In this document: positions 2,072-57,187 of the stretch, piece after piece
How positions within the stretch are numbered: the first letter of the stretch is position 1
How the letters are laid out: the number at the start of each line of letters is the position of its first letter
IMG/VR virus record: IMGVR_UViG_3300009506_000001
Span: 91,246 to 155,245 of that record
Source: a virus
Direction: 5' to 3' (one strand)
DNA: 64,000 nucleotides
Translations under genes and position numbers: made by a program
Notes under the pieces: generated by a model
The model's database searches: none
The model's input: the letters and a program-made list of their open reading frames with translations, nothing else
What the model was told of the DNA's origin: nothing

Positions 2072-4623
2072 TAGAACCCTAGTAAATCTTCTACAACAAG
2101 CGATTGTGCTGTTGGTACTTCTTTACCAATAGCCTTGATAATGTTACCCAGTGGATTGTCAACAAGTCGTTCAATGTGCATTTGTCGATTGATTGTGAAG
2201 TTCTCCAAGAACCACTCCGGTACATCGTGCAAGTCAGTTGGAAGTGCAATGCTCTTGAACTTGCCGTACTTCTTCGTTAGGTAGAAAACCTTAATCTTCA
2301 TACCAGACGTAATTGCACCGCTAACACGATCGCCGTGCTGCTCGATCATCTTGTTGTAGTGAATTGCTGCAGCAACATGCCCAGGCAAACGAGTATTCGG
2401 ATCATGTTCAAGGTTGGTTGTGTATTCCTCAACCTTGTTGACGCCTTTAGGAAGACCAATCGCCATAATGTCATCGGTGGTTTCAATGTAGTGCTTGAAT
2501 TCAACAATATCGTTAGCGATATCGGCCCATTCTTCGCCCTTGAGCAACCGACCCACGTATTCATTCAACTTTTTACCAACAGCAGGTGGAATTGTTGTTT
2601 TCTTTGTGTCCAAGCCCATAACTTTGAGCTTATCAACCTTCTCGCCTTCGTTGTCGATTACACGAAGGATGTAGCGTTTCTTTTCAACGAAGATCCCACG
2701 AGAAGCGACAACTTCTCGACCAGCCTTGATAATATCATCGAACCCTGGCTGACACAAGAACGTCTCACGCATGAATTCCTGGAACGATGCTGTGACCTTT
2801 TCGCCAGCAGCATCAGCAATCACAACAGCCTCTTCAGCATTCTCGGCAAACAAGGCAAAGTATGTGGAGTCTGTGTCACCATATAGAACAGCCTCACCGC
2901 TAGCATCATATACACCAGTCATCACTTCGTTCGTTTTTGCACACTGATGTCGAAGGATAGCACGACCTGTGCCAGTTGTACTCTCGCCCATACGTAAGTC
3001 AGAATACCTGAAGTATGCGTTGTTGAGAGCACCGTACAAGCTGTTTAGCTTGATCTTGTATACGTATTGTAACCGGTCATAATACGACTTCTTGCCTTTG
3101 TCCTCTGCCTCTGCTTTCAGTGCCTGATATTTCTTACGAGTAGCGTACCAGTCTTCAAGTATGGCTGGAATGATGCCTTTCTTCTCCTGTGAGAAGACAG
3201 TACCGAACCCACTGATGGCCCATTTACGTTCTCGCATTACAGAACGCCACTCTTCGCCCGTGTATTCTTCTTCGGAGCCATCTTCGTAGGCAAGAACTAA
3301 CGTCACCATTGTCCCTTTAGCAATGTTCTCGGCCGCCTTCGCACAGTCGTCAAACTGACCAATGAGCGTTTCAGGACTAATATTGATAGAGCGAATAGCA
3401 GAAGGATACAGCGAATTGATGTCGATTGATCCAATCCAATCATGCATACCTGTCTTTGGTTCGAGCACAAACGCCCCTGCAATACTGCCCTGCTCGGGAT
3501 CACCCATGTCAGGAAAACGCATGTCCATCTCATGCACAATGTAGTTGTTGATAGCAAGCTCAGCGAGTTTTAGTGTGCCTGTAACATGCTTCCACAACCC
3601 AGTAGAAAGGTGGTACATTTCATTTGCCAGAGCAACGTATCCTAGCTTTTCTTCAAACCCCTTTAGGACCTCCGTGTCACGAAGGTTGTATCGACAGAAC
3701 CAAGCAAAGTCATTTCGATACAAATCAGCCAAGGTGCCATTGTATTCCAACTTTGGTAGGTCAGGAAGCATTTCGTCGGCAATCGATTCCAACTTGTACG
3801 AAGGACGTTCAGCCATCTCATACTTCTTGAATAGAGCAAGATAGTCACAGCTGATACGACCATGAAGGTCAATTGTTGTGTTAGTGCGACCGAACATCTC
3901 AACTTCACGATACTTAGGGCGTCCAGCATGTGGGAATGACAACATGTCGAAGTACTTCATGCCAAGCGTGCGTTCAAGGCGTTTCGCTATATAAGGTACG
4001 TCGAAGAAGTCACTGTTCCAACCTGCAATGAGGTCAGCATCTTCAATCTCGCCAATAATGCTGAGAAGCAATTCTTTTTCGTTTTCGCAGAGGTAAACTT
4101 CGATCTCTGTGTCATCTGGATACTCCTCGATCTCGTTCATCTTCTTGGAGAGAGATTCTTCGGTCCAGGTTTGACCGTCAGGAGGAACCGCGTACAACAC
4201 CATCCTATGTTCCCATTGGTGATACATAGCGATGGAGTTGATTGGAGCGTAAGGGTTATCAACGCTAGAGAACCCTATCTCGGTATTGTAATCAACCTCA
4301 ATATCAAGAAAGGTGATATGGAGCTTGGGAGCTGGAACCTGATAGTACCGCTCGGAAAGAAACTTTAGTTCGGGTGGAAGATCTGACTCGAACATTTCAA
4401 CACCACTGCCACGACATTCACTACGAGCGGCGTTGTATTCTTCGTTTGTTGCAAAATCGTGACGAGTGAGTTTGTCACCGTAAATGCTTACGTGCTTACC
4501 TTTGGGATCTTTCGTGAAGAAATAGTACGGAGCACGGTGATTGTTAAGAGTTCTTTCACCGTCCTCCGTACGTTCCCAAACAATGATATCGTCGCCCTTT
4601 CGGACAGCAGATATGTAGCTCAT
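2071..4623 (-). CDS. family B DNA polymerase (gp43-like)
   Basis: Exo DIE and WNSDFFD motifs; DINSLYPS, KIKLNSLYG and YGDTDS. Confidence 0.97.
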   Translation of the reverse strand: MSYISAVRKGDDIIVWERTEDGERTLNNHRAPYYFFTKDPKGKHVSIYGDKLTRHDFATNEEYNAARSECRGSGVEMFESDLPPELKFLSERYYQVPAPKLHITFLDIEVDYNTEIGFSSVDNPYAPINSIAMYHQWEHRMVLYAVPPDGQTWTEESLSKKMNEIEEYPDDTEIEVYLCENEKELLLSIIGEIEDADLIAGWNSDFFDVPYIAKRLERTLGMKYFDMLSFPHAGRPKYREVEMFGRTNTTIDLHGRISCDYLALFKKYEMAERPSYKLESIADEMLPDLPKLEYNGTLADLYRNDFAWFCRYNLRDTEVLKGFEEKLGYVALANEMYHLSTGLWKHVTGTLKLAELAINNYIVHEMDMRFPDMGDPEQGSIAGAFVLEPKTGMHDWIGSIDINSLYPSAIRSINISPETLIGQFDDCAKAAENIAKGTMVTLVLAYEDGSEEEYTGEEWRSVMRERKWAISGFGTVFSQEKKGIIPAILEDWYATRKKYQALKAEAEDKGKKSYYDRLQYVYKIKLNSLYGALNNAYFRYSDLRMGESTTGTGRAILRHQCAKTNEVMTGVYDASGEAVLYGDTDSTYFALFAENAEEAVVIADAAGEKVTASFQEFMRETFLCQPGFDDIIKAGREVVASRGIFVEKKRYILRVIDNEGEKVDKLKVMGLDTKKTTIPPAVGKKLNEYVGRLLKGEEWADIANDIVEFKHYIETTDDIMAIGLPKGVNKVEEYTTNLEHDPNTRLPGHVAAAIHYNKMIEQHGDRVSGAITSGMKIKVFYLTKKYGKFKSIALPTDLHDVPEWFLENFTINRQMHIERLVDNPLGNIIKAIGKEVPTAQSLVVEDLLGF

Positions 4624-33456: not shown

Positions 33457-33720
33457 TGGGAGCCTTTATTTGGTAACAAGGAAAAGGCTCCTCTATAAAA
33501 CCCCGATGAGGCTTACGCTGCTAGGCGAAGGTCCTCATAGTAGTTGTCATCGTTTGCAACTAAAGTTTTGTGCTGGTTACGCCAGTCACCTCTCGGCTAT
33601 CTCCTGTCCTCTTATTCGCCCCGTCGAATGCCGTGTCATCCCCAATAACTACTTGTTTTAGTGGAGAAGATGGGAGTCGAACCCATGTCCGCAACGCTTC
33701 CAATTTCTATCATCGATAGC
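33457..33720 (-). ncRNA. ssrA: circularly permuted (two-piece) tmRNA, tag (A)ANDDNYYEDLRLAA
   Basis: T-arm plus CTTCTCCA 3' acceptor strand (33686-33662) precedes the 5' end GGGGATG..ATTCGAC (from 33643); G3-U70 pair; tag ORF at 33557-33513. Confidence 0.88.
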
Positions 33721-33792
33721 AGTGGTATTTATTGTCTAAATGCCACACCTCAGATTATACTGAGAGACGCTTGATAAGACAACAAAAACTAA

Positions 33793-43198: not shown

Positions 43199-44773
43199 TT
43201 ATGCATCATCGTCGATGAAGACGTCAAGCGAGGAACGCTCGTCCGTAAGTTCGTATAATGCCCAGGTTTTTCCTGTGGCGTCCGTGCTCTCTAATTTGAC
43301 GTCGTATCCCCACAGCACTCGAGCGTGCTTCAACGTCTCCTGAGCAGAGTCCTGATCGAGCGGACGACGATCACGGATAATGTGCTGTAGAGTCATCGAA
43401 CGATCGCCCCATCTGTCAACACCACCCCTTTTCACCTGGATCTCAGGTACGTTCGTTCCACGATTGTACTGGTTGGAAAGAGCAGAGCGGATGTGTCTGT
43501 ACCCGTCGTAGTTGTGGATGGCGGAGATTTCAAGCTTTGGATCTTGGTCGTCATCAAGAACTGAAAACAGATGGAAGTCACGGATTACTTTTGGTGACAG
43601 GAACTCGAGAACGAAGCTGTCATCTTTGAAGTTTGCAGCGGCCCACAGAATGTTGTCAAGCCATTTGCCATTGCCGACCCAATCCTTATGCTTGAACCAG
43701 TCAAGGTCTTCTTGGGTGGGCTCCATGCTGATTCGCTTGATATCTTGGTACATAGCAAAACCGAGAGCATATACGTTAATGCCGCTGTACCACTTCGAGT
43801 CGTAACCAGGCTGGAATGTGACGTTTGTGTGGCTCTCGAGGAACTCCATCATGTAGCCATCACCGATCAGACCTTCATCATACAACTCGTTGAGAATGGT
43901 GTAGTGGATGAAAGTCGCAAACCCTTCGTTCATCAGCTGCGTCTGCATTTGCGGATAGAAGTACTGGCTCAGCTTGCGGACAATGCGGATGATTTCACGC
44001 TTCCACTGAGGAAGGTTTGGAGCACTCTTTTCGATGAAGTATAGAAGGTTCTCCACGCTGTCATCAGGGAACGCAGGACCTGAATCTGTAGCTTGTTCAG
44101 GCTCGGTGTTCGGAACAGTCGTCATCCAGACTTCATTGATCTGGGACTGAATCCATTTTGCACGCTCCTCCGCTTCGGCCTTTTCTTGGGCAGCAGACGG
44201 TTGAGGTGGACGTTTGTACTTATCGATTCCGTAGTATTGAAGTGCATGGCACGCATCCAACACCTCTTCGACTTCTTCATCGCCGTACATCTCTTCGCAT
44301 TCACGAATGTACTTTTTGGCGAATGACAGGTAGTCCACGATCGAACTGGCATCTGTCCACTGCTTGAACATGTAGTTGTTTTTGAAGAAGTGGTTGTGGC
44401 CGAATGATGCGTGAGCCATGACAAGGATCTGCATCAGCATGGTGTTCTCTTCCATTAGGTATGCAATGCAAGGATCGGAGTTGATAACAACCTCATATGC
44501 CAGGCCCATACGACCACGCTTGTACCGTTCCATCTCTTCCACAAACTGCATGCCCGTTGACCAATGGTCGTAGTAAAGCGGCATTGCGTGTGTGGCGTAT
44601 GCCTCAAGCATCTGCTCAGCGGAGATAATCTCCAACTGGTTTGGATACACGTTGAGTTTGAGCTTTTCTGTTCCTATACGAGCGATCTCGTTGTAGTAGT
44701 CATCGAGCAGGTCATAGTTCCATTCCGCCCCTGTCGCCAACGGCTCAACTCGCTTTTCGGTGTTTTCGCTCAT
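43199..44773 (-). CDS. ycgB: SpoVR/YcgB family protein
   Basis: YPNQLEII, MP..Y.HWS.G, GLAYEVVINS.PCIAYLME.N, GHNHFFKNN and MNEGFA motifs. Confidence 0.93.
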   Translation of the reverse strand: MSENTEKRVEPLATGAEWNYDLLDDYYNEIARIGTEKLKLNVYPNQLEIISAEQMLEAYATHAMPLYYDHWSTGMQFVEEMERYKRGRMGLAYEVVINSDPCIAYLMEENTMLMQILVMAHASFGHNHFFKNNYMFKQWTDASSIVDYLSFAKKYIRECEEMYGDEEVEEVLDACHALQYYGIDKYKRPPQPSAAQEKAEAEERAKWIQSQINEVWMTTVPNTEPEQATDSGPAFPDDSVENLLYFIEKSAPNLPQWKREIIRIVRKLSQYFYPQMQTQLMNEGFATFIHYTILNELYDEGLIGDGYMMEFLESHTNVTFQPGYDSKWYSGINVYALGFAMYQDIKRISMEPTQEDLDWFKHKDWVGNGKWLDNILWAAANFKDDSFVLEFLSPKVIRDFHLFSVLDDDQDPKLEISAIHNYDGYRHIRSALSNQYNRGTNVPEIQVKRGGVDRWGDRSMTLQHIIRDRRPLDQDSAQETLKHARVLWGYDVKLESTDATGKTWALYELTDERSSLDVFIDDDA

Positions 44774-50581: not shown

Positions 50582-51091
50582 TCAACCCATAACTTTTAGG
50601 GTTTTGTCAATTTTTTTCTGTACTCGGGATTTTTTGAAAGGCGAAAGGTCATCGACAAAGACTTTACCCTTTAGGTGATCCATTTCGTGTTGAATTGCAA
50701 ATGCCCACAGGTCTGAGAATTCACGTTCATGTATTTCACCCAAAACATCCTGAAAGCGAACTTTGATCCGCTTCGGACGATCACGCTCCTCGAAGTATCC
50801 TGGCACAGACAGGCATCCTTCACGCCAAGAGAAGAGGTCATCGGACTGTTCGAGGATTTCAGGATTAACAAGGCATAGCGTCTCATCCTCATCTGGTAGT
50901 ACCATGACAAACATTTGAATGTTGTGCCCAACTTGAGGTGCAGCGAGGCCAACCCCGGAACGATGGTACATGGTGACAATCATATCACCATGCAGACGCT
51001 CCAAAGATTCGGAAAAGTCAGTAACGGGTTTGCAAGGCTGATGAAGTCGTTCATCAGGCCAATAAACAAGATCAAGGATTTTATGGATCAT
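50582..51091 (-). CDS. def: peptide deformylase
   Basis: GVGLAAPQ, EGCLS and QHEMDHL motifs. Confidence 0.96.
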   Translation of the reverse strand: MIHKILDLVYWPDERLHQPCKPVTDFSESLERLHGDMIVTMYHRSGVGLAAPQVGHNIQMFVMVLPDEDETLCLVNPEILEQSDDLFSWREGCLSVPGYFEERDRPKRIKVRFQDVLGEIHEREFSDLWAFAIQHEMDHLKGKVFVDDLSPFKKSRVQKKIDKTLKVMG

Positions 51092-51955: not shown

Positions 51956-52600
51956 TCAACGAGGGCGGCTCCAATATTTGAATTGATACCAATGAAATTC
52001 ACCGAGTTTTTTACCCGATGTTGGCTTTGTATCTGGCCATTCGTTGGTATTTTTGTAGTACTCCTCAACTTGCTTCTGAGTACTCTCTTCACGAGGAATG
52101 GCCATAATCTCAGGGTGATGATCACACCAATCACTCACGTCTTTACGGAAAGCGAAATACTGTGCAATCTCGGCTTTGATTTGTTCTTCGGTGAGTTCAT
52201 GAAGAGCGAAAATACGATCACCCTCGTCTGTCTCTTCAATGCAATTGAAGTACACCCACTCGCCGTTGTACTTAGCCATGCCACTCAGCGGACCATCATA
52301 GTAACCAGTGTGCCACCACATGACAAGATCAGGTTGATCCTTCTCATCGTCATAGAACTGAGTGAGTGGCACGTCCTCTGTGCCACCGTCCCACTCAAAA
52401 TGCATCACGCCTTCACTGATACGAGGTCGCCACCGGTAATGTGCTGGTACGCCATCCACAACAGCATCCCAGCCTTCGTGGTTTATGTTCCGGCGACCTA
52501 TGCCTGCTTGTGTGAGACGCCAATCAATCCAGCGATCCCATACCCACATGTCGATGGTATCCATCACATGCCACGCTGTAAAAAGTTCAGTCTTCTTCAT
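51956..52600 (-). CDS. hypothetical protein
   Basis: Contains YYDGPLSG. Confidence 0.6.
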   Translation of the reverse strand: MKKTELFTAWHVMDTIDMWVWDRWIDWRLTQAGIGRRNINHEGWDAVVDGVPAHYRWRPRISEGVMHFEWDGGTEDVPLTQFYDDEKDQPDLVMWWHTGYYDGPLSGMAKYNGEWVYFNCIEETDEGDRIFALHELTEEQIKAEIAQYFAFRKDVSDWCDHHPEIMAIPREESTQKQVEEYYKNTNEWPDTKPTSGKKLGEFHWYQFKYWSRPR

Positions 52601-52991
52601 TTTCAAACTCCTTGCAAAGATCAAGATACATTTCATATCGCTTTGCTTTATCTTTCATTGCTTGTACCTTTTCCTTTTCGGCACGTTCTTGCATTGCCTT
52701 CAGTTGAGCATCTCGGCGTTTCTTGATTTCTCGTCCAATGAGCTCATCATCCCAAAACACAGCCAAAGGAATTTTTTCAGAGCCTTCGGTGTCGTACCTT
52801 CCACAACTGCCCTCTTGTTCGTACATGTATGTCATTGTGATGTAAGGAGGATACTTGTGATTGTGCACCTGAATTGTAGGGTCCCAAATCTGACGACCAT
52901 ACCCAAGCTCTGCAACCCAGTCCTCGCACTTCTCAACGAGCTCTTCGTGAATCTCGAGGTACGTATCGAGTCTTTCTTTTGCTTCGTTCAT
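52587..52991 (-). CDS. hypothetical protein
   Basis: C-terminus similar to that of the neighbouring 52991..53416 gene (Y..Y..L..E.E). Confidence 0.6.
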   Translation of the reverse strand: MNEAKERLDTYLEIHEELVEKCEDWVAELGYGRQIWDPTIQVHNHKYPPYITMTYMYEQEGSCGRYDTEGSEKIPLAVFWDDELIGREIKKRRDAQLKAMQERAEKEKVQAMKDKAKRYEMYLDLCKEFENEED

Positions 52992-53416
52992 TAGAAACCT
53001 CCTTCATATTGCTCTTTGAGTTTGAGGTACTGTTTGTACTCTCGCTCTTTACGGTCAGCTTCAGCTTTGAGACGCTTACGCTCCGCCTTCTGTCGCTCCT
53101 CTTCCTCTTTGGCTGCGATTGTCGCTTTTGCGTCCTCTATCCATTCGGGATCAAAAAGGTACGATGTGGGAATGAGCTCACTGTGGCTTTCGTAACAACC
53201 ACAACATCCCTCCTCATAATCGAAGTAAAGGTTTCCATACTCAATGTAAATCTCATCAGGGTCCACCGTTCCTCGACCGTGCAATTTGTTGATTGCAGTT
53301 GCAATTGGGGCTGCTTTTTGCTGCAACCGCTCAAAAGCCTCAGCAAAGATCATGTAATCGTCTTCATTCTCGATCGTGAGCTGTTCGTCACCGTGTTCAT
53401 CTTTGATAAGTTTCAT
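52991..53416 (-). CDS. hypothetical protein
   Basis: Coupled ORF. Confidence 0.6.
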   Translation of the reverse strand: MKLIKDEHGDEQLTIENEDDYMIFAEAFERLQQKAAPIATAINKLHGRGTVDPDEIYIEYGNLYFDYEEGCCGCYESHSELIPTSYLFDPEWIEDAKATIAAKEEEERQKAERKRLKAEADRKEREYKQYLKLKEQYEGGF

Positions 53417-54048
53417 TACGCCACCTCATAAAGTGCTTGCAGTTCGTCGTATGTGATAACAGGCTTGCCATCAGCAAGCATCTTATCAACAACCTTCTTG
53501 TCTTTGCCGTACGTTACGTACATTGGCTTGACAGTAGGTACCTTAACGGCCTTGAGAATTGCACGATCTATTGTGCCATCAAATGGTGCAAGGAATTCAT
53601 CAATTATGGAAGTCCCATAAAAAGGCTTGTCCACCACTTCAGGTTTTCTTCTGAATAGGTCGCTCAACCGCTTCTTACGTGCTTCGTTCTTGACAGGGTC
53701 AGTGTGCTCCTCTTCCTCCTTGATCAACTTCTGAATGTGCTTCAGTTCACGAACAGCTTGCTCAAGACCCAGCTGTGGACTGGTCCCGTTGCGTAGCTTG
53801 TTAGCGTTGGAGATCATTGTGAAGCCGTAGTGGAATGGCTTACCACGAAGGATGTTGTACAGCACGTGGTGAGCGGACGTTAGCCACCCATCAACTGTGA
53901 CGGTATACTCCTCGACCGAACCCTTCCAAGTGGAAGTACGAACTTCGGTGTGCTCTTTTGCCTTGTCAGAATTGACAGCGGCTGCCCATGCTTTACGGAA
54001 AGCGATGTAGTGCTCTTTAGAAACGAATTGTGAATTTGTCGTAGTCAT
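53416..54048 (-). CDS. hypothetical protein, first gene downstream of the amber leader
   Basis: 210 aa, GAGG SD. Confidence 0.7.
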   Translation of the reverse strand: MTTTNSQFVSKEHYIAFRKAWAAAVNSDKAKEHTEVRTSTWKGSVEEYTVTVDGWLTSAHHVLYNILRGKPFHYGFTMISNANKLRNGTSPQLGLEQAVRELKHIQKLIKEEEEHTDPVKNEARKKRLSDLFRRKPEVVDKPFYGTSIIDEFLAPFDGTIDRAILKAVKVPTVKPMYVTYGKDKKVVDKMLADGKPVITYDELQALYEVA

Positions 54049-54076
54049 TGTAGTGTCCTCTTAGGTTAATGTGAAA

Positions 54077-54249
54077 TTTGTTTACGACGTGAATAGCGGT
54101 AAACAAAGTCACGGAGGACCTCGACTACAAACCTACCAGAACGGCAGGGTAAAGAAAGTAACCTACGTATGAGGCATAGTCACGATAGGACCCGTATCGC
54201 CGGGTTCGGCGTTTGCTGGTCCTGTATCTCTTGGTTTCATGTTCATCAT
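54077..54249 (-). promoter_or_regulatory. putative leader peptide with two in-frame TAG codons and an RGPP-stop end, followed by a hairpin
   Basis: MMNMKPRDTGPANAEPGDTGPIVTMPHT*VTFFTLPFW*VCSRGPP-TGA (54249-54109); hairpin TTTGTTTAC/GTAAACAAA at 54107-54077. Confidence 0.55.
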
Positions 54250-54275
54250 AAAAGTATATATGCTTGTTTCAAATT

Positions 54276-54354
54276 TGGATCGCCGTACGGGATTCGAACC
54301 CGTGCAGACAGTGGTTTAGAAGCACCCGCTCTGGCCAGGCTGAGCTAACGGCGA
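54276..54354 (-). tRNA. tRNA with CUA anticodon (amber suppressor)
   Basis: Acceptor TCGCCGT/ACGGCGA-T-CCA, D-arm GCTC/GAGC, anticodon loop TT-CTA-AA (C31-C39 mismatch), T-arm ACGGG-TTCGAAT-CCCGT. Confidence 0.8.
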
Positions 54355-55492: not shown

Positions 55493-55738
55493 CTACTTCT
55501 TTCCTCGACTACCAACCCGCTGACTTGGTGGTAGCAGTGCTTCCGCTGCCTCCTGTACTCGTCGCTGGTTACGCTTTTTTGCTGCGGCTTTGTTACGCTT
55601 GCGGACCACACTTGGCTTCTCATAAAATTCACGATTGCGAACTTCTTGAATGATGCCGTCTTTGTCCACGTTACGCTTGAAGCGACGCATTAGGGACTCA
55701 AAACTTTCTTTGTCGTGCCTTAATTTTGCTGATGCCAT
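55493..55738 (-). CDS. rpsU: ribosomal protein bS21
   Basis: [33 protein letters not shown]; own promoter TTGCCT-N17-TATAAT. Confidence 0.93.
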
Positions 55739-56277: not shown

Positions 56278-57187
56278 TTCGGGCTGAGAATACACCGTCA
56301 GTATTCGTACCTTTGAAGGATTATCCCATCACCTGCTACAGCTAGGGTTCCCTTCGTTTCCACTCCGTCAAACAGAGTCTACGAACAAGGTTGCCTTTTT
56401 AAAGTGGTGGCGGTTCCACTGTCCACTGATGCTACTCTGCAGTCTATCTACCGTCAACCTTGCGGGCTGTAAAGGCTTGCGGGCCACCGTGCGACTTTCT
56501 ACAAATGCCTTCCGCCTTGCGAGCTTCGGACACCTTTATTCACCGTAGTGTAAAGAATTAAACCTCTTTAACACCAGTGCGGCCGCAACTTTGCGTTTTC
56601 GTTTAAAGATAGTGGGTTTGAATCCACAGCCTTCTGTTCCTAAAACAGACGCTCTACATTGAGCTATATCAACCAACCAAGATGTGTGCGGCCAGTAGTT
56701 TCGTGAGTTTTTGGCCCACGAGATGCTACACACCTCATGTCTATTTTCCTTGCGGGAAATATGACCGTTCTTCAAGACTGATGGGCAAGCATTTATCCTA
56801 CACTCGTTGTATGAGTGGTCTCAGGACTTACCCGACAACCTTTCAAACTGCGACGACGCCCTTGATTGCAGTCTCGGACTATCCGTCACTACCCTTTACC
56901 TCTTACGACTCGTTAGCTTGGTATGGTTAGGAGGGGGTACCAGCCCTCTCTTGAATCCCCTGTTCCCGCACGTGGCGGCAGGTCAGATTCTGCTCTTTCC
57001 CTAACACACTAACTTCACCGTTAAGACCGCCGCTCTTATCAACGATCTCCTGTCACCAGGGAGGTGAGGCTTGCATAGGAATACCTCCGAAGAGGTGCAG
57101 GTTAAGTTGGATCCCCTGCTTTCCCCTAGTCACCTAGGTTTATGCCCCTATGCGGCAATTCTGTAGTAATACTCTCTACACTTGATT
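56278..57187 (-). ncRNA. large structured ncRNA, GOLLD-like
   Basis: ~900 nt with no credible ORF; own TTGACT-N16-TATAGT promoter; many GCAA/TTCG hairpins; 3' end CGGTGTATTCTCAGCCC; embedded tRNA-like domain; family call is from recollection of GOLLD features. Confidence 0.6.
56604..56673 (-). pseudogene. degenerate tRNA-like element inside the large ncRNA
   Basis: D-arm GCTC/GAGC, anticodon arm TCTGT-TTTAGGA-ACAGA, GTGG-ATTCAAAC-CCAC T-arm; acceptor only partly paired; no CCA. Confidence 0.65.

Follow-up and report, generated by a model that had tools for sequence, protein, structure and literature searches.

A putative amber-gated leader switch beside a suppressor tRNA gene in a phage with the standard genetic code

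Arrest peptides of the RAPP/RGPP type (ApdA, ApdP, ApcA and those of Streptomyces upstream open reading frames (ORFs)) and SecM (RAGP) are encoded by small upstream ORFs, located on the same strand as the gene that follows, which end in R-(G/A)-P-P; RGPP is the strongest known arrest core (PMC12992588, PMC10951233, PMC10951299). An ORF of this layout was found in the last 64 kilobases (kb) of a 155-kb viral contig from IMG/VR (record IMGVR_UViG_3300009506_000001, positions 91,246 to 155,245; CheckV completeness estimate, 44%), and this whole stretch of 64,000 nucleotides (nt) is referred to here as the window. The frame of this ORF (the leader) opens 26 nt downstream of a gene for a tRNA with the anticodon CUA (tRNA-CUA), crosses two amber codons (TAG1 and TAG2) before it reaches R-G-P-P, and precedes an operon of four overlapping genes, the first of which encodes a protein of 210 amino acids (aa). 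The tRNA, the leader frame with its ambers, the hairpin that follows it and the operon all lie on the minus strand (Table 1).

The locus shares further traits with described systems. As in secM-secA, the stall predicted here in silico would put the ribosome onto sequence that pairs with the Shine-Dalgarno (SD) sequence of the next gene. As in leader-peptide attenuators and in the translational attenuation of erm and cat genes, the position of the ribosome on a short leader would set the fold of the downstream RNA; in ermC, it is likewise a stalled ribosome that frees the SD, in that case of a resistance gene. The recoded phages (crAss-like, Lak, Agate and Jade) also combine a phage-encoded tRNA-CUA with in-frame TAGs, which tie gene expression to that tRNA, and suppressor-dependent expression has been proposed to serve as post-transcriptional timing there (Borges et al., 10.1101/2021.08.26.457843; PMC9523058). 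In AMD1 (PMC13025110), readthrough of a stop codon carries the ribosome to a downstream arrest sequence, where the stall is the regulatory signal. The literature searched contained these components, and no description of a stop-gated arrest leader or of such a natural switch. We propose, with a probability of roughly two in three, that the leader is a cis-acting translational switch with UAG readthrough as its input and the unmasking of the SD and AUG of the operon as its output.

The amber-interrupted leader and its relatives

From its first ATG (54249; further ATGs follow at 54246 and 54240), the leader runs for 28 codons to TAG1, for another nine, ending in L-P-F-W, to TAG2, and then through V-C-S-R-G-P-P to a TGA at 54111-54109. 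The context G-TAG-GTT is common to both window ambers, and D-T-G-P occurs twice. This succession of tRNA-CUA and double-amber leader had been described in an earlier note on this DNA, as had a perfect hairpin of nine base pairs (bp) 1 nt past the TGA, the box TATACT (54258-54253 by our coordinates) and the four-gene operon at 54048-51956; each was recovered at the same place. Inspected by eye, the leader (46 residues) contains neither a signal nor a membrane segment, its N-terminus being polar (K-P-R-D-T-G-P-A-N-A-E-P-G-D) and its sole hydrophobic stretch measuring nine residues. R-(G/A)-P-P occurs five times in the six frames of the 155-kb contig, where the leader copy is the only one that resembles a real ORF; one of the other four was examined and is off frame. 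The off-frame L-P-F-W-K-H-P-I-A-R-G-P-P at ~44230-44290 of the contig (G000:C1, plus strand, outside the window) recalls the end of the leader and is probably due to chance, since it lacks a start codon and is antisense to what, by eye, is coding sequence.

Loci for comparison were collected by homology to the 210-aa protein, and later to the fourth protein of the operon. Because they were found through downstream proteins and the leader was not used as a query, the sample is unbiased for the leader features tested; the exception is locus L024, which was found by a looser DNA pattern in IMG/VR. Scanning IMG/VR with a pattern of the tRNA anticodon arm gave no match, and the only locus obtained with an RGPP-TGA pattern (L006) was a chance match in high-GC DNA. 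Twenty-one loci, including the window, have a separate leader, and the identity of their proteins to that of the window ranges from 85% down to 28%.

In all 21, a frame started by ATG extends across one or two in-frame TAGs and then reads x-x-P-P. TAG1 is present in every leader, in frame and followed by a purine each time; a second amber, after a block ending in L-P-F-W, is found in 15, and in two further loci (L020 and L021) TGG (Trp) occupies the position of TAG2. Next in the frame is (V/I)-x-S-R-G-P-P, with an immediate TGA or TAA in 17 loci. As to the core, RGPP is found in 17 leaders, RAPP in one (L021), and REPP, HDPP and TGPP in one each. A comparison of the regions upstream of homologs of the 210-aa gene had been suggested in the earlier note, and the frame, its ambers, the leader end and (in 18 of the 21 loci) tRNA-CUA all came through it. 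As the arrangement recurs in 20 other loci, it is far beyond chance.

The N-terminal part of the leader is variable or absent among the relatives. It often consists of a short ATG frame of the type M-K-x-x-T/S-D/E-N/D, which is followed by TAG. The motif K-P-(R/G)-D-T-G-P-A forms a mini-ORF of its own in L003, L005, L007 and L020, ended by TAA or TGA before the TAG-containing ORF, and is missing from some related loci. A different arrangement was encountered in loci L013-15, where the gene of the 210-aa family has no leader of its own and directly follows a gene for a Pth2-like peptidyl-tRNA hydrolase (PF01981, E = 5e-14; L013:272-613 and L015:2011-2454). That gene begins M-T-TAG-V-S-T-E-G-P-P, so that amber gate and G-P-P block are fused to the hydrolase; the 210-aa-family gene and then tRNA-CUA come after it. 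Thus, an in-frame amber precedes the family gene at every locus with readable upstream DNA.

Several observations say that the codons beyond the ambers are translated, as far as sequence comparison can tell. The spacing between TAG and CCUCC, the five nucleotides within the G-P-P codons that recur in all leaders, is 18, 21, 24, 30, 45, 48, 51 or 69 nt among the 21 loci, that is, a multiple of three irrespective of insertions and deletions. Synonymous changes preserve the residues after the TAGs: Ser is encoded by AGT, TCT or TCA; Arg by CGA, CGT, CGC or AGG; Leu by CTG, CTA or TTA; at the second Pro, each of the four CCN codons occurs. For the seven leaders of equal length, variable codon columns with only synonymous changes and those with amino acid changes stand at 6:5 in frame, versus 1:11 and 0:11 off frame, and third positions vary in 10 of 19 codons, compared with six first and five second positions. 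The TGG in L020 and L021 implies that a sense codon is tolerated at the position of TAG2. Finally, the codon after TAG2 is GTT, GTG, GTA, ATT, ATC or ATA, which is no consistent start codon; translation must therefore pass through the amber.

The nucleotide context points in the same direction. A purine (G or A) follows 37/37 gating TAGs, versus 11/27 ordinary TAG stops of the genome. Work of Bossi and of Miller and Albertini, both from 1983, is said to have found that a purine on the 3′ side favours amber suppression in Escherichia coli. As a separate observation, the ordinary TAG stops of the whole contig are followed by a pyrimidine in 16 of 27 cases and by another stop within four codons in 11 of 27; this context looks like protection of real genes from the phage's own suppressor.

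That the leader end is an arrest-type motif had also been proposed in the earlier note. RAPP, and especially RGPP, the most robust cores, cause a strong arrest that is refractory to elongation factor P (EF-P) and tolerates many N-terminal sequences (Fujiwara et al., PMC12992588); both motifs are kept out of bacterial proteomes, and the C-termini of small upstream ORFs are enriched in them (PMC12992588). Arrest at R-G-P-P of the leader is thus probable, judging from the motif. Because Arg is kept by way of both CGN and AGG codons, and because a RAPP variant exists, it can be argued that the peptide itself matters, besides CCUCC.

The tRNA-CUA gene begins 1 nt past the stop codon of a 96-aa gene. 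Its product, as modelled by ARAGORN, has an encoded 3′ CCA and a 7-nt anticodon loop with U33 and CUA at positions 34-36. The tRNA is kept across 16 relatives, and its acceptor stems covary. The 18 leader loci with tRNA-CUA include one (L025) with a degenerate copy that is not called by ARAGORN; this tRNA-like sequence at ~270-345 has an aberrant D-arm, and the two-amber leader of the same locus is still intact. Locus L022 holds two different tRNA-CUA genes, at 2535-2609 and 3726-3800. The TGG at the position of TAG2 in two loci hints, weakly, at Trp as the residue inserted.

Translation of the leader apparently starts close to the 5′ end of the message. No SD is found upstream of the first ATG of the leader, and TATATACT lies 3-6 nt ahead of the first ATG in the window, L004 and L009. 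In several other loci, for example L003, L005, L007, L011, L020, L022 and L024, the first ATG is preceded at exactly 5 nt by TATAAATA, which we take to be the T4 late-promoter consensus. A sigma70-like pair (TTGAAA/TATGAT) was flagged as well, at 54272-54245. These promoter-like boxes and their spacing to the ATG fit a leaderless late transcript, and the nearly leaderless start without SD that the earlier note had envisaged is conserved in the relatives.

Predicted pairing of the leader end with the start of the operon

The end of the leader is complementary to the translation start of the operon. In the predicted fold, the SD of the 210-aa gene is bound by the anti-SD that lies within the G-P-P codons (helix 2), and the x-S-R codons pair across the start codon of that gene (helix 1; Table 1); the 9-bp hairpin and a flanking GUGA/UCAC stem lie inside this long-range helix and brace it. 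The window region folds with a z-score of -3.8 against shuffled controls, and the same architecture is present in the minimum free energy (MFE) folds of 18/18 loci examined. When anti-SD and SD segments were paired within and between loci, the cognate duplexes had a mean energy of -15.8 kcal/mol, versus -12.6 kcal/mol for the non-cognate ones, and a mean as low as the cognate one did not arise in 20,000 permutations; shuffled leader segments averaged -7.2 kcal/mol. In L010, a compensatory change preserves the pairing (GAUCCU with AGGAUC).

Searches with a covariance model derived from three sequences recovered 16 loci; within the window, as within the contig at large, there was a single hit, that is, no second copy of the element. 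In the alignment fitted to this model, 89.9% of the cells are paired, compared with 32-52% when the partners were slid against each other, and in 13 of the 26 pairs both partners have changed, which was matched by 0/500 shuffles. In the same fitted alignment, helix 1 is paired to 91% and helix 2 to 84%, the latter with compensatory changes. For the hairpin together with its GUGA/UCAC brace, changes on both sides were found in 10/13 pairs. RNAalifold, run on a plain MAFFT alignment that is not structure-aware, returned no structure.

The effect of a ribosome on this fold was computed by folding the RNA with a footprint of 28 nt blocked. The probability of the SD core being unpaired, averaged over 17 loci, was 0.10 in the free RNA and 0.08 with the ribosome either at TAG1 or at the last TAG; with the P site on the first Pro codon, it rose to 0.41 (Wilcoxon p ~5e-4). 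The corresponding values for the window were 0.00 in the free RNA and 0.26 with the ribosome at the P-P codons. Between the inner hairpin and the SD, most loci have an A/U-rich single-stranded stretch of the type AACUUAAU (AUUAACCUAA in the window, 54061-54070, minus strand), which may be a standby or S1-binding site.

The proposed switch and its alternatives

The switch that we consider the best account of the locus would operate as follows. Translation of the leader would begin at or very near the 5′ end of the message, and ribosomes would reach TAG1 and then TAG2. Where suppression fails, release factor 1 (RF1) would release the ribosomes while they are still 48 or 18 nt short of the anti-SD; as a result, the long-range helix would stay shut, with the x-S-R-G-P-P codons paired to SD and AUG and the inner hairpin bracing them, and the operon would remain untranslated. 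Where tRNA-CUA outcompetes RF1 at both ambers, the ribosome would arrive at R-G-P-P and then TGA, and a stall of the RAPP/RGPP type, in which Pro-tRNA occupies the A site, or else a slow termination, would hold the CCUCC anti-SD within the ribosome, leaving SD and AUG free for initiation. With two ambers in series, the output would follow approximately the square of the suppression efficiency. This account rests on three inferences: a charged tRNA-CUA that acts as a suppressor, a ribosome stall at RGPP in this leader, and a stall that turns the operon on instead of off. In place of arrest, slow termination at Pro-Pro-stop might serve. As to its purpose, our guess is that the switch turns on functions needed only during stop-codon suppression, because relatives gate a Pth2-like peptidyl-tRNA hydrolase.

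Alternatives to this switch differ in what they make of the ambers and of the hairpin. If the phage were recoded, with TAG as sense (similar to code 15), the leader would be just one among many genes with a TAG inside; in keeping with this, the phage has a suppressor tRNA-CUA, and the contig holds an estimated 44% of the genome only. Yet, if the standard code is assumed, stop-to-stop frames of gene length cover 96% of the 155 kb, TAG terminates 27 of 200 ORF calls on the contig, and reading TAG as sense merges no more long frames than do the controls with TGA or TAA, so this reading is barely credible, and the view of the earlier note that TAG is an ordinary stop elsewhere was borne out. As the contig uses the standard code, tRNA-CUA is without an evident role in bulk decoding. 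If, on the other hand, the TAGs were real stops, the product would be a peptide of 6-28 codons and the block downstream a pure RNA element, opened by another factor, by temperature, or by an RNA or protein acting in trans. CCUCC is indeed invariant, GUAGUC pairs with GACUAC, and L009 has lost both partners jointly, with TCT for AGT and AUGAAAACA at the start of the downstream gene; moreover, TAG2 is part of the 3′ arm of a small hairpin (54148-54132, flagged by a scan), the variants of which still pair. A mere need for pairing does not account for Ser being kept as TCT or TCA where pairing is lost, for Arg encoded by AGG and Pro by four codons, for indels between TAG1 and CCUCC in multiples of three, for TGG at TAG2 in two loci, for the purine after every gating TAG, or for the linkage to tRNA-CUA in a standard-code phage, and we regard it as unlikely that the element is RNA alone.

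Readthrough could also simply yield a micropeptide acting in trans, with TAG limiting its amount and the pairing at the SD reflecting ordinary translational coupling. The conservation of K-P-G-D-T-G-P-A, L-P-F-W and S-R-G-P-P as amino acids would suit such a product; its shortness, its variable middle and an N-terminal motif that is a separate ORF or absent in many loci would not, and neither would the fact that the best-conserved part is an arrest-type core overlapping the anti-SD. This makes a micropeptide very unlikely. Transcription attenuation, the output step suggested in the earlier note, would make the hairpin a terminator, the 5′ arm of which is masked by the ribosome stalled at RGPP so that the polymerase reads on. 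A hairpin is present at this position in all loci; that of the window starts 1 nt after TGA, as the note had it, so that its 5′ arm would lie beneath a ribosome stalled at P-P. Its composition is not that of a terminator: it is A/U-rich with two G-C pairs out of nine, its tail is UUUCACAUU, the terminator scan did not flag it, and the equivalent hairpin lacks a subsequent U-run in 18/18 loci examined. Rather, a larger structure that covaries has the hairpin as its inner stem and structural brace, enclosed by the anti-SD/SD helix, and attenuation is most unlikely. Because it lacks a U-tract and lies inside a covarying helix that pairs the leader end with SD and AUG, modelling makes a SecM-like translational unmasking the likelier output.

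Several points weigh against the amber-gated switch as formulated above. The arrest core varies (HDPP, REPP and TGPP occur), while CCUCC is the only invariant part; P-P may thus in part be a by-product of the anti-SD, and transit of the ribosome without arrest may be sufficient. In L016, L017, L019 and L024, the frame runs on beyond RGPP. The opening of the SD predicted by folding is partial (0.41), and the alignment used for covariation was fitted to the model and therefore leans in its favour. Regarding the tRNA, that of the window has a C31-C39 mismatch at the base of the anticodon stem (ARAGORN); L016, L017 and L019 are without tRNA-CUA in their short contigs; the discriminator base is U, A or G among the relatives, with the first acceptor pair varying as well; and comparison with E. 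coli tRNAs yielded no consistent isotype, the best look-alikes being Arg, Arg (T-arm only) and Thr/Gly.

The putatively gated genes, their surroundings and the comparison with known systems

The proteins encoded by the operon offer few clues. The 210-aa family and the 214-226-aa family (the fourth gene) have no match in Pfam or NCBIfam, and a single PHROG of unknown function was hit at 1e-5 only. Their AlphaFold2 models (mean predicted local distance difference test (pLDDT) scores of 85 for the 210-aa and 90 for the 214-aa protein) had no match in the PDB by Foldseek or VIA-align, the best VIA-align Z-scores of 4.1 (210-aa) and 3.5 (214-aa) being at noise level, and ESM Atlas contained no usable match for the gated proteins. 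The weak VIA-align matches of the 210-aa model include several chains of large-subunit ribosomal proteins, mitochondrial and bacterial, over residues ~31-190 (Z 2.8-4.1, below a meaningful level); that they recur is curious in a gene placed under a putative sensor of translation. Pth2 is absent from the 155-kb contig. A search of GenBank phage records with the region and with two proteins of the gated family had no match at the DNA or protein level, and no cultured relative was found.

Table 1. Coordinates and strand of the features of the locus in the window
Feature	Position	Strand	Remarks
tRNA, anticodon CUA (amber suppressor type)	54276..54354	-	ARAGORN cloverleaf; Rfam RF00005, 47.9 bits
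TATATACT box, -10-like	54253..54260	-	3 nt before first leader ATG
Leader ORF	54109..54249	-	M-M-N-M-K-P-R-D-T-G-P-A...T, TAG1, 9 codons, TAG2, V-C-S-R-G-P-P, TGA
Peptide motif K-P-(R/G)-D-T-G-P-A, N-terminal part of leader	54214..54237	-	Alignment with third-position changes
Gating amber TAG1	54163..54165	-	Context ACG-TAG-G; 48 nt before CCUCC
Gating amber TAG2	54133..54135	-	Context TGG-TAG-G; 18 nt before CCUCC
GUAGUCG, codons x-S-R	54122..54128	-	Pairs with UGACUAC 54041-54047, covering UG of the start codon of the 210-aa gene
R-G-P-P codons CGA GGT CCT CCG, candidate arrest core	54112..54123	-	TGA directly after
Anti-SD GUCCUC, inside G-P-P codons	54114..54119	-	Pairs with SD 54055-54060
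Flanking GUGA/UCAC stem	54112-54109 / 54074-54071	-	With the 9-bp hairpin, braces the long-range helix
9-bp hairpin UUUGUUUAC / GUAAACAAA	54077..54107 (arms 54107-54099 / 54085-54077)	-	Between anti-SD and SD; 1 nt after TGA
SD GAGGAC of the 210-aa gene	54055..54060	-	Paired to anti-SD in the predicted fold
First gated gene, 210-aa protein	53416..54048	-	Conserved family; invariant W55, H60, H61, R68, block F-L-x-P-F
Three further overlapping genes: 141 aa, 134 aa and 214-226-aa protein with Y-Y-D-G-P-L-S-G block	51956..53416	-	
Ribosomal protein bS21	55493-55738	-	TIGR00030, 6e-18
Peptide deformylase	50582-51091	-	TIGR00079, 9e-47
GOLLD RNA	56281-56736	-	RF02032, 202 bits, full length
Circularly permuted transfer-messenger RNA (tmRNA)	33513-33721	-	RF04321, 114 bits; ARAGORN tag peptide DDNYYEDLRLAA

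The surroundings of the locus form a translation island, to which bS21, peptide deformylase, tmRNA, GOLLD RNA and several tRNAs belong. The genes for bS21 and peptide deformylase flank the block of tRNA, leader and operon, and this order is kept in most related loci; the shared succession is bS21, sometimes QueC, tRNA-CUA, leader, 210-aa family gene, one to three small genes, HNH endonuclease, peptide deformylase and often PrkA. Since readthrough yields non-stop ribosomes, the presence of a phage tmRNA (ribosome rescue) and an amber suppressor in one genome may reflect a functional connection. The GOLLD RNA embeds a tRNA-like segment (56604-56673, minus strand), which scores 52 bits with the Rfam tRNA model and is not called by ARAGORN; by eye, it has the anticodon loop UUUAGGA (anticodon UAG), a short variable arm and a poorly pairing acceptor stem.

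Suppressor tRNAs in standard-code phages are usually explained as a step towards recoding. The alternative offered by this locus is testable, namely that the suppressor tRNA is the input of a switch; if true, such tRNAs would have a regulatory role and be neither relics of recoding nor its precursors. We know of no other natural case in which a suppressor tRNA and RF1 compete at a codon of a leader to control a gene. The switch would join three parts that are each known (suppressor tRNA, RGPP arrest and SD sequestration) in a new logic with a built-in squared response, and the two conserved families of 210 and 214-226 aa would be marked as likely players in the manipulation of translation by phages. 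We lean, if only slightly, towards the wider view that tRNA and stop-interrupted arrest leader together form a natural sensor of the state of the genetic code, and belong to a class of phage riboregulators, widespread and undescribed, whose signal is how a stop codon is being decoded. Such a sensor would turn on a small regulon only during active readthrough, namely the four operon proteins here and a Pth2-like peptidyl-tRNA hydrolase in relatives. A natural version would also supply evolved parts and contexts (the purine at +4 and W-UAG-V) for synthetic biology, where amber-gated circuits have been built to suppress leakiness (PMC7969014).

Set against the described systems, the locus differs from each in a particular respect. 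ApdA, ApdP, ApcA and SecM are monitoring substrates that are released by secretion or membrane insertion, whereas the core of the present leader is reached only past one or two UAGs; moreover, the leader is phage-encoded beside its own suppressor tRNA, and the genes it would gate are unrelated to Sec or YidC. In attenuators and in erm and cat, the signal is the supply of charged tRNA for sense codons or a bound antibiotic; here, it would be suppressor tRNA versus RF1 at UAG, and no terminator would take part. AMD1 is eukaryotic, and its near-cognate readthrough takes place without a dedicated tRNA, the stall repressing the upstream ORF by ribosome queuing, where the present leader would unmask a start site downstream. 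Recoded phages, finally, have many late structural and lysis genes with in-frame stops inside the coding sequence, whereas the present phage uses the standard code, and the sole TAG-interrupted frame found in it is that of a short, putatively regulatory leader that would control an operon via RNA structure.

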